This document shows, one piece after another, positions 46,038 through 50,552 of a stretch of DNA of 64,000 nucleotides. Numbering within the stretch: position 1 is the first letter of the stretch; each line of letters begins with the position of its first letter. Source of the DNA: an uncultured Nitrososphaerota archaeon. Its GTDB lineage: Archaea > Thermoproteota > EX4484-205 > JAAOZO01. The notes below the pieces were generated by a model, which did no database searches, had not been told where the DNA came from, and saw only the letters and a list, made by a program, of their open reading frames with translations. Made by a program: the position numbers and the translations under genes. The DNA lies in the NCBI GenBank assembly GCA_964408285.1, contig CAYOYV010000004.1, forward strand, positions 69,950 to 133,949, written 5' to 3'.

Positions 46038-46826
46038 ATGATGGCGAAGATATCACTTGGTTCGATCTTAGGAGGAGGAGTTGCAGCCCTATTGATGGGA
46101 TTCTTGACAGATTCAATATTGCTCGATATAGCGCATAGAACTGGGGTGATTGAAGGGGCATCCTCCTTGGCATCCTTGCCAGCGGTAATGGCTATGCTGC
46201 TATCGGTGTCATATTTTCTGGGGGCCAGCCTCACAAAGGAGCTGCTCTTTGCCATGGTGGCAAGCCTGATTCTCTTCGCCAGCGGGATCATGGCCGTAAG
46301 GGCGCGCCTTCCCCCTGCTCCAGTTGGCATCGCTTCTGGACTGGTTTCTTTTGTCATACTCAGGAAATTGTTCACCAGAAACAAACCAGATCTGCACGAC
46401 ACCGAAAAAACAAGAAACGCGCTCAGCAATAGGACAATAGTCGCATATCAGAGGGTCAATGTTGACGACCTAGAGCGAATCAGTGATGCCCTCTACAGCA
46501 TCAGGAATACTGCCCTTTTCGTTAAGCCCTCTCTGCTGAAGACAAGGATCTTTGCAGTGCTTTCCATCGATGATGTTGACAGGGGAATTCTGGATCGCTC
46601 CCTCGAAACGCTGCCGGTGAACTACGCAATCCTTGAGACCGAGGATCGCGGCGAGCATAGTGCCTATGTAATACTCACATCTGAGGGCATGTTTACGAAG
46701 AGCAACCTCGAGAAAGAAGTAGCGAAAGTACTAAGCTCTGCAAATATCCTGACATTGCAGGGAGCGGAAATCGTCCCATCAGACGAAGCGAGTAATCCAA
46801 TCACTGCTTGGGAGATAGGGAAATGA
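46038..46826 (+). CDS. Membrane protein with a cytoplasmic C-terminal domain
   Basis: Four N-terminal hydrophobic segments and a ~140-aa soluble tail. Overlaps the next gene by 19 nt. Confidence 0.4.
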   Translation: MMAKISLGSILGGGVAALLMGFLTDSILLDIAHRTGVIEGASSLASLPAVMAMLLSVSYFLGASLTKELLFAMVASLILFASGIMAVRARLPPAPVGIASGLVSFVILRKLFTRNKPDLHDTEKTRNALSNRTIVAYQRVNVDDLERISDALYSIRNTALFVKPSLLKTRIFAVLSIDDVDRGILDRSLETLPVNYAILETEDRGEHSAYVILTSEGMFTKSNLEKEVAKVLSSANILTLQGAEIVPSDEASNPITAWEIGK

Positions 46827-47044
46827 GCCAGGTAGCCAACCGTGCCGAAGATGAGGAGAAGGAATTCGCTGAAAGCATCTTGAACTCTCTTCTGCATGCT
46901 CCCGTGGATCTTTTTGACGCCAAGAAGGATGAAAAACTGAAGGCAACTCTAGACAGGCTTGTCTCGGAGGGAAGGGTCGAACTGGTGTACAGACTGAGAG
47001 AGCAGAAGAGGCGCGGCAGGAGGATTTACTTGGTGAGGCTATGA
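46808..47044 (+). CDS. Small acidic protein with a basic wing-like C-terminus (first gene of the overlapping operon)
   Basis: 78 aa ending RVELVYRLREQKRRGRRIYLVRL. ATGA overlap with the next gene. Confidence 0.35.
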   Translation: MGDREMSQVANRAEDEEKEFAESILNSLLHAPVDLFDAKKDEKLKATLDRLVSEGRVELVYRLREQKRRGRRIYLVRL

Positions 47045-48297
47045 TGAGCAGGGCAGAGCGCCTCCTGATTGAAAACTCGATAGTGCCCTCTGAGGGTCAA
47101 ATATTCGCCGAGGGATCCGAAGTCGTGGAAACCATAAAGTCGAAACTTGAGAACTATGTGCATCTGAACCCGCGGCCTGTCGCGACAGAAAGGGAGGTTG
47201 TCTCTCTGTTGGGCCTGAACGCTTCCATTCGTCCTTTCAGGGTACCAGAAGTCGAAGATCCCTATAGCTACGTCGCGAACCTGGTTGAGGTCCTGAAGAG
47301 CACAATGCACGTGGACGATTTTTCTGCTTCGATATTGAAGAAGGTCCTCTACACATTGGTCGCCTCACATAAGGAACCTACAATCGAGCTGGTCAGGGAA
47401 ATGGTGGAGGAGGAGGCGACATACTTGACCGCGACTGAGTATATGAGCGTCAGGAGGCTAGAATCCGTCCTCGCGGACATGACAGTGGGAACCTTCGGAT
47501 CAGCCATGAAGGAGGAAAGGCTTGAACTCCAAGGTAGAGTCCTCGTAGCGATACCCGACGAGTTTCCCGTCATGTTCCGCTACGTTCCATTGGCAGTAGT
47601 ACTACTGAGACTCATTCACATGAAGGTGGACACTCCTATCATAATATCAGATGTCGAGGGCTATGTCCCCAGCAGAAGCAACGTTTTGCGCGAAGAGAGG
47701 GCCGTCATGTTCGAGCGGATATCTTACTTTGTGCGGTTATTCGACATCCTATCCAGAAGGAGAAGCATGGTCCTGCTTCAGAGCATGAGCTCAACTCTCG
47801 TCGCTTCCGAAGTCTTAATGAATTCCCGCAACATAATTCTCCGGAGGCCTAGAACTGATCAAGAGTTAAGGACTTTCGAGGGATTTGGAATACAATGGGA
47901 GAGACTGGCCCCCACCGACGCGATAATGCTGAGTCCTGCTTCCAATCTCTTCGCAAAGAGACTCAGAATTCAGCAGGTGAGGCTTGAGGAAATCAAGGTT
48001 ACACGAGAAATACCTGTACAATACTACTGCGTCCAACCAATTCTCAAGAGGCTTTTCGGAGGGGACTGGGAGAAAGCTGTGGATATATTGAAGTTCGTTC
48101 GGGATTCGCAGCCCGTTAACCTCGAAAGCCTGGAGACTTATGCTGAGACGAAGTTTGGAAAAATCAAGACTCTCAGGACCTTGATCTCTGTTGGCATGGT
48201 CCAATCATCCAAGACTCTAATGGGGCTCTCATACAGCATCACAAAAAGGGGAGAGAAGGCAATAGGAGAGATTGAAGAAGGAGGCCGGAAGTCGTGA
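47041..48297 (+). CDS. Hypothetical 418-aa protein with a winged-helix-like C-terminal region
   Basis: No NTPase motif. The C-terminal ~90 aa have an HTH/wH-like pattern. ATGA overlaps on both sides. Confidence 0.45.
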   Translation: MMSRAERLLIENSIVPSEGQIFAEGSEVVETIKSKLENYVHLNPRPVATEREVVSLLGLNASIRPFRVPEVEDPYSYVANLVEVLKSTMHVDDFSASILKKVLYTLVASHKEPTIELVREMVEEEATYLTATEYMSVRRLESVLADMTVGTFGSAMKEERLELQGRVLVAIPDEFPVMFRYVPLAVVLLRLIHMKVDTPIIISDVEGYVPSRSNVLREERAVMFERISYFVRLFDILSRRRSMVLLQSMSSTLVASEVLMNSRNIILRRPRTDQELRTFEGFGIQWERLAPTDAIMLSPASNLFAKRLRIQQVRLEEIKVTREIPVQYYCVQPILKRLFGGDWEKAVDILKFVRDSQPVNLESLETYAETKFGKIKTLRTLISVGMVQSSKTLMGLSYSITKRGEKAIGEIEEGGRKS

Positions 48298-48779: not shown

Positions 48780-49758
48780 AGAAACGGAGGAAACGGGACA
48801 AACTAAGGCTTGTCAGCTTTCCGATCTGAGCGGGCTTGGAGACAAGAGCATTGAGAGGCTCAATTCCATCGGAATCTACAGCGTCAGACAGCTCGCACTG
48901 TACAACAAGACTGAGATACTCGACTATCTTTCCGACTTTGATCCGCCCCGCCTCACCAGGGCCTTACATCAAGCCAGGGCCATCTGCTTTCCACCTAGGA
49001 CATATACTGGGGAAGAGAAGGAAAAAGGAGTCAGGGGACTTGATAGACTTCCGTCAGGTCTCAGGAACTTGGATGCACTGCTCGGAGGAGGTCTTGCGCA
49101 GACCTTCATATACGAACTAGTCGGCGAGTACGGAGTCGGAAAGACCCAAGTTTGTCATCAACTCGCAGTGCAAGCCCACATGAACAGATGGGGTACCTAT
49201 TACATAGACACTGAGAACACCTTCAGAATAGACAGGATCGCCCAGATGGCTCAAAGGTTCGGCCTGAAGGAATCCATAGAAGGAGGACAACTGAGACATA
49301 GCGTTCTTACTTCGACGCCACTGAATGTAGACCAGCTGATCGATGTCATCAGAATTGAACTTACGAATGCCGTGGAGCAAAAGAACGTGAAACTGTGTGT
49401 CCTAGATAGCTTGATTGCCCAATTCAGGAGCGAGTTCAAAGGCAGAGAGCATTTAGCAGAAAGGCAACAGACATTGAGCTATGTGCTGGGTTGGCTTCTG
49501 AGGGCCGCAATGCTCTATAAGATATTCGTAGTGATCACCAACCACATAATGGCACAACCAATGGGCTATGCTCCAGCAAAGGCTGCTGGAGGTCATGTCG
49601 TAGAGCACGGCACCACTTACAGGCTCTTCATAAGGAAGGAGAAAGAGAAGTTCGAGATGAGCGTTGAGGATGCCCCAGATCTCCCGTTTGGAGCGAGCAT
49701 TCAGTATACGATTGGTGAAGGCGGCCTGTTCGAAGCAGAAGAGAAACGGAAAAAATGA
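48772..49758 (+). CDS. RadA/Rad51-family recombinase-like ATPase with an N-terminal HhH domain (divergent)
   Basis: HhH (LSDLSGLGDKSIERLNSIGIYSVRQL). Walker A GEYGVGKTQ, IDTENTFR, Walker B KLCVLDSLIAQFRSEF, AERQQ, GGHVVEHGTTYRLFIRK, DAPDLP. Colinear with canonical archaeal RadA, at roughly 40-45% identity by eye. Confidence 0.75.
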   Translation: MGEETEETGQTKACQLSDLSGLGDKSIERLNSIGIYSVRQLALYNKTEILDYLSDFDPPRLTRALHQARAICFPPRTYTGEEKEKGVRGLDRLPSGLRNLDALLGGGLAQTFIYELVGEYGVGKTQVCHQLAVQAHMNRWGTYYIDTENTFRIDRIAQMAQRFGLKESIEGGQLRHSVLTSTPLNVDQLIDVIRIELTNAVEQKNVKLCVLDSLIAQFRSEFKGREHLAERQQTLSYVLGWLLRAAMLYKIFVVITNHIMAQPMGYAPAKAAGGHVVEHGTTYRLFIRKEKEKFEMSVEDAPDLPFGASIQYTIGEGGLFEAEEKRKK

Positions 49759-50552
49759 GCGATAGGTCCTACAGAACCGACCGGGTCTCGATTGAAGCCG
49801 AGCAGATGCAGGATTTCAGGATAAAGTTCCTGGGTAAATCCCATTCTTGGTTTGAAACGTGTTCGAAGAGGCTGAAGGACATAACAAACGAAGCTCCAAA
49901 CATGTGGAAACTGAAGGGGAGAAAGGAGCTCAATGACCATCAGAAGGCCTATCTTGTGAGATTCCTCCCCAATCACGCGAAATATTGCTGCACTTGTTTC
50001 GAAACGCGATACGGGCATGTGAGGAGGAAAGAGATGTGCACCCACATAGGGTCCACAATACTCTGGAGGATGGTGAACAAAGGAATTGAGATCGGAGAGG
50101 CTGAGGGAGGCCGGATGGTCAAAGCGAAGCCCATTCTACTCTATGGCCGGTCAAGAGCACTGGAGAGAGCATACGCTATAGCAGAACCTCCTATCCTCAT
50201 AATCACCAATGTACAACTCCAAATCCCTGATCCTGACATGCTCGTGCACATGGTGCCAGATGTTTATCAATTCAATATCGATGAGATCAAACAGATTCTC
50301 GGGACCAAGAGGATCAGGACGGTAATACATTATTTCAATCCCTCGGGCACAATGAACGTCGTGGATGTCCTCAAAAGGCAGGTTTCAGAGCTGTATGGTC
50401 TAGCTTCAGCAAGTACTATCGAACTAATCTATGCCACTACGATATCGGACAGAATCCGGGAAGGCAAATGGCTTGAAGAACCAACGAACGCAGAAGCGTA
50501 CCACAACCTTGTGAGCGAGATAAGGTACGTTGGCGATCGAGACGTAATCTAA
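49755..50552 (+). CDS. SWIM-type zinc-finger-like protein
   Basis: CTCFETRYGHVRRKEMCTH is CxC-x13-CxH. ATGA overlap with the RadA-family gene. Confidence 0.45.
   Translation: MSDRSYRTDRVSIEAEQMQDFRIKFLGKSHSWFETCSKRLKDITNEAPNMWKLKGRKELNDHQKAYLVRFLPNHAKYCCTCFETRYGHVRRKEMCTHIGSTILWRMVNKGIEIGEAEGGRMVKAKPILLYGRSRALERAYAIAEPPILIITNVQLQIPDPDMLVHMVPDVYQFNIDEIKQILGTKRIRTVIHYFNPSGTMNVVDVLKRQVSELYGLASASTIELIYATTISDRIREGKWLEEPTNAEAYHNLVSEIRYVGDRDVI

Follow-up and report, generated by a model that had tools for sequence, protein, structure and literature searches.

Known regulators of recombinase filaments

Genome stability and predisposition to cancer in humans depend centrally on the proteins that regulate filaments of the recombinases Rad51 and RadA, among them BRCA2, the RAD51 paralogs and the Shu complex. 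To our knowledge, the only regulators known for archaeal RadA are RadB and the core-only paralogs aRadC/Ral, and the origins of filament regulators are poorly understood. Here we analyse a six-gene operon at positions 46038-50552 (+ strand) of a 64,000-nucleotide stretch of contig CAYOYV010000004.1 (assembly GCA_964408285.1), from an uncultured Nitrososphaerota archaeon; we call the whole of this stretch the window, and coordinates throughout are positions in it. We propose, with moderate confidence, that the operon (genes g1 to g6) encodes a recombination-mediator module that is built around a paralog of RadA (g5) and works like the Shu complex, and that it is part of a gene cluster found across the Thermoproteota.

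The Shu complex consists of SWS1, SWSAP1 and SPIDR in humans and of Shu2, Shu1, Psy3 and Csm2 in yeast, and Shu2 orthologues reportedly extend to archaea (Godin et al. 2015, as cited in a later paper). Our locus resembles the Shu complex in placing a SWIM protein (with the motif CxC...CxH, and CxHxxA in most archaeal members) and a degenerate RecA fold beside a Rad51-family recombinase. It differs in its full-length and probably active RadA paralog, in its dead HerA-like ATPase, and in coiled-coil and membrane proteins without Shu counterparts. It also differs in its taxonomic setting, being a module of Thermoproteota and not of Asgard archaea.

Other companions of RadA are RadB (in Euryarchaeota) and aRadC/Ral (e.g. 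Sso2452, in Sulfolobales), which consist of the core only, without a helix-hairpin-helix (HhH) N-domain, and are thought to modulate the RadA filament. Like g5, these are RecA-family proteins that accompany the main RadA, whereas g5 is full length (positions 3-313 of the 316 in the NCBIfam model NF003301) and is encoded together with SWIM and HerA-like partners in an operon of their own. A RadA-family protein amid poorly characterised partners is likewise found in the conserved archaeal operon PolB2 - inactivated RadA - arCOG07300, for which a role in repair has been predicted (Makarova, Krupovic and Koonin 2014, PMC4104785); there, the ATPase residues have gone from the RadA-like proteins, which are accompanied by an inactivated PolB and by a helical protein of approximately 90 aa (PMC4104785). 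We rejected identity with that operon because g5 keeps all of the ATPase motifs and has other partners.

A six-gene operon under purifying selection

According to the list of open reading frames (ORFs), six successive + strand ORFs, joined by overlaps of start and stop codons, occupy positions 46038-50552:

g1, 46038-46826, + strand: 262 aa, membrane protein at the head of the operon
g2, 46823-47044, + strand: 73 aa, small basic protein, winged-helix-like
g3, 47041-48297, + strand: 418 aa, predicted inactivated HerA/FtsK-type P-loop ATPase with a C-terminal winged helix
g4, 48297-48779, + strand: 160 aa, a beta-rich half and a coiled-coil-like half; alternative start GTG at 48294
g5, 48772-49758, + strand: 328 aa, RadA-family recombinase, probable paralog, HhH N-domain and ATPase core
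g6, 49755-50552, + strand: 265 aa, SWIM-like N-domain and RecA-like C-domain
Junction g1/g2: ATGA at 46823-46826
Junction g2/g3: ATGA at 47041
Junction g3/g4: GTGATG at 48294-48299 (GTGA, or a 1-nt overlap)
Junction g4/g5: ATGGGTGA at 48772-48779, an 8-nt overlap
Junction g5/g6: ATGA at 49755

The original prediction, made from the sequence of the window, described a chain of five overlapping + strand genes. The chain itself is present, but it comprises six genes, g1 having been overlooked. Similarly, the overlap ATGA, which had been assigned to every junction, is found at three of the five, but not at g3/g4 or g4/g5. The small gene g2 had been started at TTG 46808; its start is most likely ATG 46823, giving 73 aa, because the stop codon of g1 overlaps that ATG as ATGA, and gene callers agree, drawing identical boundaries for all six genes on identical metagenomic contigs.

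The same six genes occur in the same order in a second assembly (GCA_964445005.1; locus L007), at 46-82% amino acid identity and with another upstream neighbour; we refer to the host of the window operon and the L007-type copies together as the window lineage. Nonsynonymous divergence (pN) is far below synonymous divergence (pS) in all six genes, and the ratio of nonsynonymous to synonymous substitution rates (dN/dS) against locus L009 is 0.09 for g5 and 0.21 for g6. The most constrained gene of the operon is g5, at 82% identity to its counterpart in L007. Given that the gene set is kept in L007 and that pN is far below pS, all six genes are genuine: the six-gene operon is real, and each of its genes is under purifying selection.

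Upstream of g1 lies a 176-bp gap, and downstream of g6 a convergent gene. The flanking genes are metabolic, and the GC content of the operon equals that of its surroundings. Promoter-like and terminator-like sites inside the operon do not exceed the expectation from shuffled sequence, and repeats flanking it do not exceed chance; the window holds no tRNA or rRNA gene, and there is no integrase near the operon.

A divergent RadA-family protein with intact ATPase motifs

The protein g5 matches the Pfam family Rad51 with an E-value of 2e-45 and can be aligned end to end with canonical RadAs, over an N-terminal HhH domain and a RecA-like ATPase core (residues 12-319 in the NF003301 alignment). Pfam detects the HhH part only weakly (HHH_5, E 0.15), yet it aligns with canonical RadA N-domains. 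Against NF003301 the protein scores 212 bits (cutoff 259), and against TIGR02236 199.9 bits (cutoff 361.15). The gene, listed fourth in the original prediction, had there been assigned to the RadA/Rad51 family with an HhH domain and described as divergent, and these full-length matches below the RadA equivalog cutoffs support both statements. Alignment with canonical RadAs locates its nucleotide-binding motifs as follows:

49123-49146, + strand: Walker A of g5, GEYGVGKT, residues 118-125
49393-49410, + strand: Walker B strand of g5, LCVLDS, residues 208-213

In addition to these two motifs, g5 keeps IDTENTF (with the catalytic Glu of IDTE) and the L1 arginines in FRSEFKGREHLAERQQ. The L1 region that follows the Walker B, QFRSEFKGREHLAERQQTLSYVL, bears a derived RQQxL(N/S)Y motif. 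Canonical RadA and Rad51 polymerise by means of an FxxA motif, which in the linker reads RFKTA in Sulfolobus and TFMRA in Pyrococcus; the corresponding segment of g5 is RTYTG. The Gln of TNQ at the base of L2 serves RecA-family proteins as an allosteric switch between ATP and DNA; the window lineage (48772-49758; L007 4501-5487) has His there (TNH), as does one module of the kind that we call type B below (L021 5709-6686). Moreover, six residues of the LPxExGGLxG loop are missing from the RadA-like protein of the window lineage. Among 5.8 billion proteins, the relatives of g5 consist of one identical cluster, one at 82% identity and a next one at 40%; the last of these, P0003 from Methanomethylicia, carries the NCBI name RadA, and derived segments are common to both proteins.

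The SWIM-like protein and its RecA-like domain

The protein encoded by g6 divides into two parts:

49755-50105, + strand: N-domain of g6, SWIM-like zinc module, residues 1-117
49989-50045, + strand: zinc-binding motif CxC...CxH (C79-T-C81, 13 residues, C95-T-H97)
50106-50552, + strand: C-domain of g6, alpha/beta, RecA/Rad51-like, without Walker motifs, residues 118-265

None of the residues C79, C81, C95 and H97 varies among 5 close and 34 distant family members, in agreement with an earlier characterisation of the protein as SWIM-type. The Pfam SWIM profile (PF04434) gives no match to g6 up to an E-value of 1, and weak matches to 12 of the 34 family members (best E 7e-4). An extended SWIM signature, CxHxxA, with an invariant Ala three residues past the CxH, has been described for Shu2 and SWS1 (PMC6316741). 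Most members of the archaeal family have Ala at this position (consensus CTHIAAV or CTHVGAV), whereas g6 reads CTHIGS, with Ser in its place.

When the g6 family was searched exhaustively with HMMER, 126 matches were obtained, 44 of them below 1e-10, and nearly all cover only g6 residues 15-110; the matching proteins are mostly 100-195 aa long, and the fused form is found in one cluster only. The SWIM part is a separate protein of 105-195 aa in all other lineages, and the RecA-like part is a separate gene of 172-215 aa in Methanomethylicia and Culexarchaeia. In L011 a 111-aa homologue of the N-terminal half of g6 lies directly 3' of a RadA-like gene and shares 'CTHIGSVILWRM' with g6, and a 176-aa protein of Methanomethylicia is homologous to the C-terminal half. 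Because these 111-aa and 176-aa neighbours match its two halves, g6 appears to be a fusion of two neighbouring genes, and, by a Rosetta-stone argument, their natural fusion suggests that the SWIM and RecA-like parts act together. The genomic evidence that bears on a putative binding between g6 and a Rad51 paralog comprises this fusion to a RecA-like domain and the adjacency of RadA-like genes at 18 of 57 SWIM loci.

A structure model predicts a RecA-like core fold for the C-domain of g6. The motif GxxxxGK[ST] was not found in this domain. Comparison of its family with the RadA alignment gave an hhalign probability of 0.1%, and a profile search of the domain against the PDB was empty.

The SWIM-like N-domain is also found fused to XPD/DinG-like helicases of 512-1104 aa (P0210, P0213, P0215, P0217), one of which, P0215, has an apparent intein within the helicase P-loop region. 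In Pyrobaculum and relatives, the SWIM gene is followed by one for a conserved protein of 137-161 aa with a PIN-like acidic pattern and no Pfam match (L026 8482-8967; L055 8542-8955; L030, L031, L042).

Distribution of the module in the Thermoproteota

Around P0003, four Methanomethylicia assemblies, including a 1.58-Mb contig, carry an overlapping gene set that encodes a membrane protein, proteins of 442 and 113 aa, the RadA-like protein, and proteins of 111 and 176 aa. A scan of species-representative genomes with the SWIM family, a set to which the window lineage does not belong, yielded 57 loci, nearly all of them labelled Thermoproteota (4 are labelled 'uncultured Nitrososphaerota'), in Methanomethylicia, Culexarchaeia, Pyrobaculum, Vulcanisaeta, Caldivirga and Thermofilaceae. 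A RadA-like gene directly adjoins the SWIM gene in 18 of these loci and lies no more than 5 kb away in 31. Mapping with jackhmmer distinguishes a type B module, with the overlapping order g1-g3-g4-RadA-SWIM-RecA-like, in 9 genomes of Methanomethylicia, Culexarchaeia and related lineages; a type A module, the core g3-g4-RadA-SWIM, in 7 further Thermoproteota genomes; and the arrangement g3...SWIM-RadA in Thermofilaceae. Canonical radA loci used as controls (including those of P0011 and P0013, which come from other samples) have none of the module's neighbours. On module synteny and protein similarity, the host of the window operon would belong in the Thermoproteota, near Methanomethylicia. A radical-SAM neighbour common to the window and the Methanomethylicia module was dismissed as coincidence, the proteins not being orthologous.

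Conservation of the gene set in L007 and other Thermoproteota genomes bears out the earlier view of a recombinase embedded in a module of dedicated partners, and the recurrence of the gene order in relatives, which had been suggested as a check, is seen in the type A and type B modules. The partners had also been said to lack recognisable homologues. This is true of Pfam, NCBIfam, PADLOC and PHROGs, against which the six proteins give RadA matches only, but many Thermoproteota genomes encode homologues of g1, g3, g4 and each half of g6. We judge "uncharacterised recombination/repair system" to be a fair description of the locus, and we found no earlier description of the operon, or of a linkage between SWIM and RadA-paralog genes in archaea, in the literature that we searched.

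Paralog or sole RadA

For comparison with canonical proteins, the Sulfolobus and Pyrococcus RadA sequences were rebuilt from PDB alignments, and the trees are neighbour-joining trees only. Identity among canonical RadAs (Sulfolobus, Pyrococcus, Bathyarchaeia type, methanogens) is 50-64%, while that of all 31 SWIM-linked RadA-like proteins to canonical RadAs is 27-45%; g5 shares 33-35% identity with the RadAs of Sulfolobus, Pyrococcus and the Bathyarchaeia type, and 42-46% with the RadA-like proteins of type A and B modules. Walker A, Walker B, IDTE and the L1 arginines are retained by all SWIM-linked RadA-like proteins, and the Phe of FxxA is gone from all of them, types A and B reading [VI]xxA/G. 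Most carry RQQxLNY and GGN..AH, the canonical equivalents of which are RQQKLNKHL and GGH. Furthermore, three genomes have two SWIM-linked RadA-like genes each (P. oguniense, L026 and L055; L037 and L054; L038 and L046). The identity gap, the shared derived motifs and the presence of two such genes in some genomes lead us to regard these proteins as probably a distinct family of RadA paralogs, as opposed to the sole RadAs of their hosts.

An alternative, which we consider possible although less likely, and which is akin to the unusual radA operon of a divergent lineage offered in the original prediction, is that g5 is the only radA of this organism, situated in a lineage-typical operon, and that it has evolved fast while still forming the main filament, with its partners acting as loaders. 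Scores on NF003301 form a graded series over the modules (377, 343, 327, 281, 270 and 212 bits), as might be anticipated under such a scenario. At its upper end, the type A RadAs of L024 and L025, encoded in four-gene operons, look near-canonical, with 372-377 bits (cutoff 259), 267 bits against Sulfolobus RadA and 219 against human RAD51, so that the operon RadA could be the sole RadA in those genomes. P0003, named RadA by NCBI, scores 270 bits and is slightly over the cutoff. In addition, type A and type B modules occur together in no assembly mapped by jackhmmer, which also fits a single fast-evolving radA operon; the catalytic motifs of g5 are all intact, and it is the most conserved gene of its operon. 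That the organism possesses a canonical radA besides g5 is an inference of ours.

Opposing this alternative, Sulfolobus RadA, a canonical protein of the Thermoproteota, is 51-56% identical to euryarchaeal and Bathyarchaeia RadAs, compared to 27-45% for the SWIM-linked proteins; moreover, the FxxA Phe is lost in every SWIM-linked RadA-like protein, several genomes have two of them, and g5 itself falls under both equivalog cutoffs. Pyrobaculum has a canonical RadA besides its SWIM-linked ones.

The partner proteins g1 to g4

The membrane protein g1 has approximately four N-terminal hydrophobic helices and a soluble C-terminal domain of approximately 140 aa. It has no match in Pfam or NCBIfam, and compared with L007 it shows a pN of 0.34 and a pS of 0.71. 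Homologues detected by jackhmmer stand at the equivalent position in L007 and in the modules of Methanomethylicia and Culexarchaeia; outside the window lineage they are limited to type B. The small protein g2, by comparison, is found only in the window lineage, with a 63% identical copy in L007 and no counterpart in Methanomethylicia modules, and its sole Pfam match, to the winged-helix family ANAPC2, is weak and below the cutoff (E 0.012).

The family of g3 (16 members) aligns with three active P-loop ATPases at an hhalign probability of 94.8% (E 5e-8, 212 columns). Two of these three, from Pyrobaculum (L026, L053), are encoded directly upstream of SWIM genes and overlap them; the active ATPases have the motifs GTGKT and VIDEAH, and one of them matches the central domain of HerA (Pfam DUF87, 4e-9). 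Weak matches of the family profile include HerA-Sir2 (8j4u, E 0.016) and a VirB4-like structure (4ag5, E 0.034). In the alignment, residues foreign to a P-loop stand in place of the GTGKT of Walker A; the segment is degenerate in the type A and B proteins, and most of it is missing from the window protein. As judged from these alignments, g3 is an inactivated HerA/FtsK-type P-loop ATPase (DUF87/AAA_10) that has lost its Walker A, and it appears to descend from the active P-loop ATPase that adjoins SWIM genes in Pyrobaculum. A winged-helix C-terminus had been noticed in this 418-aa protein at the outset; it is the confident part of the AlphaFold2 (AF2) model, with a predicted local distance difference test score (pLDDT) of 70-82, and Foldseek matches it to the winged helices of F93, AspA and MarR, the model also weakly touching HerA-Sir2 8j4u.

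An alignment of 18 family members divides g4 into two halves: the N-terminal one is beta-rich and has a conserved PKR motif, and the C-terminal one is helical and coiled-coil-like. In all 18 cases the gene lies between g3 and the RadA-like gene. Searches of the PDB and Pfam with g4 gave nothing beyond chance matches of the coiled-coil type.

A proposed recombination mediator

In the mechanism that we propose, g5 would bind ATP and single-stranded DNA (ssDNA) by means of its intact Walker A, Walker B, catalytic Glu and L1 arginines and, because its FxxA motif is lost, would not be the builder of the main filament. It would pair with g6, whose RecA-like domain may dock onto g5 as SWS1-SWSAP1 or Shu2-Shu1 do, the SWIM module taking the role of SWS1/Shu2 and the P-loop-less RecA-like domain that of SWSAP1/Shu1. 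The dead HerA-like g3 and the small g2 could contact DNA through winged helices and provide a scaffold that descends from a formerly active motor, with g4 as an adaptor that bridges the complex and g1 as an anchor that holds the assembly at the membrane. The targets of such a complex would be filaments of a canonical RadA, encoded at another place in the genome, which it would nucleate, cap or stabilise. We hold less firmly to a variant of the proposal in which the complex acts at the membrane in handling incoming DNA.

Besides the points that favour a sole RadA, several observations weigh against this proposal. The AF2 model of g6 was built from a shallow alignment and has a low overall confidence (pLDDT 52), with the N-domain outside the model, and alpha/beta folds of the RecA type are common. 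The model of g3 likewise comes from a shallow alignment, with an overall pLDDT of 47 and confidence confined to the C-terminal winged helix. A profile search of the SWIM family against PDB chains gave a best E-value of 0.91, to an unrelated protein, in a set for which the inclusion of yeast Shu2 is unconfirmed. Comparison with human SWS1, using an unvalidated sequence, gave an hhalign probability of 36% over 33 columns that cover the motif only. Membership of the Shu2/SWS1 family is consequently not established, the likeness being confined to the zinc motif. It would follow from true relatedness of the SWIM and RecA-like proteins to SWS1/Shu2 and SWSAP1/Shu1 that a Shu-type mediator predates the eukaryotes, and that it originally included a RadA paralog and a HerA-derived scaffold and possibly handled imported DNA; we regard this broader scenario as doubtful.

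The locus nevertheless points to a distinct family of full-length RadA paralogs in the Thermoproteota, and to a fixed partnership between a RadA paralog, a SWIM protein, a degenerate RecA-fold protein and a HerA-derived protein. If confirmed, the module would offer a simple prokaryotic model of recombinase control by SWIM proteins and inactive Rad51 paralogs, and would link such control to archaeal loci for DNA import of the Ted type.

DNA import and defence

The link to DNA import comes from Pyrobaculum, where Ted-like loci (L026 3680-13288; L053 5607-16264) contain genes for an active g3-like ATPase, a SWIM protein and a RadA-like protein, next to a transmembrane DUF87 ATPase, pilin-like and multi-pass membrane proteins and a giant membrane protein. 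According to Beltran et al. 2023 (PMC9905601), Ted loci of Pyrobaculum and Vulcanisaeta include a recombinase gene as well as one for a 'HerA-like helicase'. That study calls the recombinase 'Rad50' while describing strand invasion, and leaves the SWIM protein unmentioned (PMC9905601). Three parts of our module are present in the Pyrobaculum loci, where the ATPase is active. In the window module, an inactivated ATPase carries a winged helix as a fused domain, and no genes for pilin, VirB6-like or VirB4-like proteins lie near.

On this basis the module might be the cytoplasmic recombination side of a DNA uptake system of the Ted or Ced kind, with g1 receiving ssDNA at the membrane. The company that SWIM, active g3-like and RadA-like genes keep with pilin-like and membrane proteins in L026 and L053, the published content of Ted loci, and the membrane protein with which type B modules start are all in keeping with such a role. 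We nonetheless consider it improbable: Ted-like components, sought by jackhmmer with Pyrobaculum queries, occur in five Thermoproteales loci only, none of them close to a type A, type B or window module; g1 has no similarity to Ted components; the ATPase of the window g3 is predicted to be inactive; and a Pfam scan of about 30 ORFs of the window detected no pilus or secretion genes.

The original prediction also raised the possibility of an anti-mobile-element system, to which may be added that of a recombination module belonging to an integrated mobile element. A tightly overlapping operon of mostly unannotated genes would suit a defence system, HerA-like ATPases are known from such systems (Sir2-HerA, to which g3 has its weak profile match, 8j4u), and other RadA-like proteins (P0016, P0017) are found on MCM-carrying contigs that resemble viruses or plasmids. 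However, the best PADLOC matches (E 0.0013-0.019, 12-16 bits) are at chance level, and no partner has a significant match in PHROGs. We detected no nuclease or effector domain and no defence-island context, and the ATPase is inactivated. The metabolic flanks of equal GC and the lack of an integrase, a tRNA gene or flanking repeats give no sign of a mobile element, the SWIM family is found on no viral contig, and Methanomethylicia have one copy per genome in a stable context. We therefore rejected both the defence system and the integrated element, and regard them as highly improbable, on the absence of PADLOC and PHROGs signal, effector, integrase, repeats and viral SWIM homologues.

Other observations

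The contigs of P0016 and P0017 (L072 7001-7969; L074 5064-6029), proteins which are 34% identical to g5, contain dozens of tiny ORFs together with genes for an MCM helicase, DpdA and a DNA methyltransferase. They are probably archaeal viruses or plasmids and bear no relation to the module.

Elsewhere in the window, two paralogous proteins of approximately 1040-1070 aa are encoded at 7212-10328 (+ strand) and 20537-23761 (- strand), their sole Pfam match being to the C-terminal domain of FtsX-like permeases. Additionally, a 1218-aa protein at 60079-63735 (+ strand) combines a Ser/Thr protein kinase with an AAA_16 (STAND-type) NTPase and TPR repeats.

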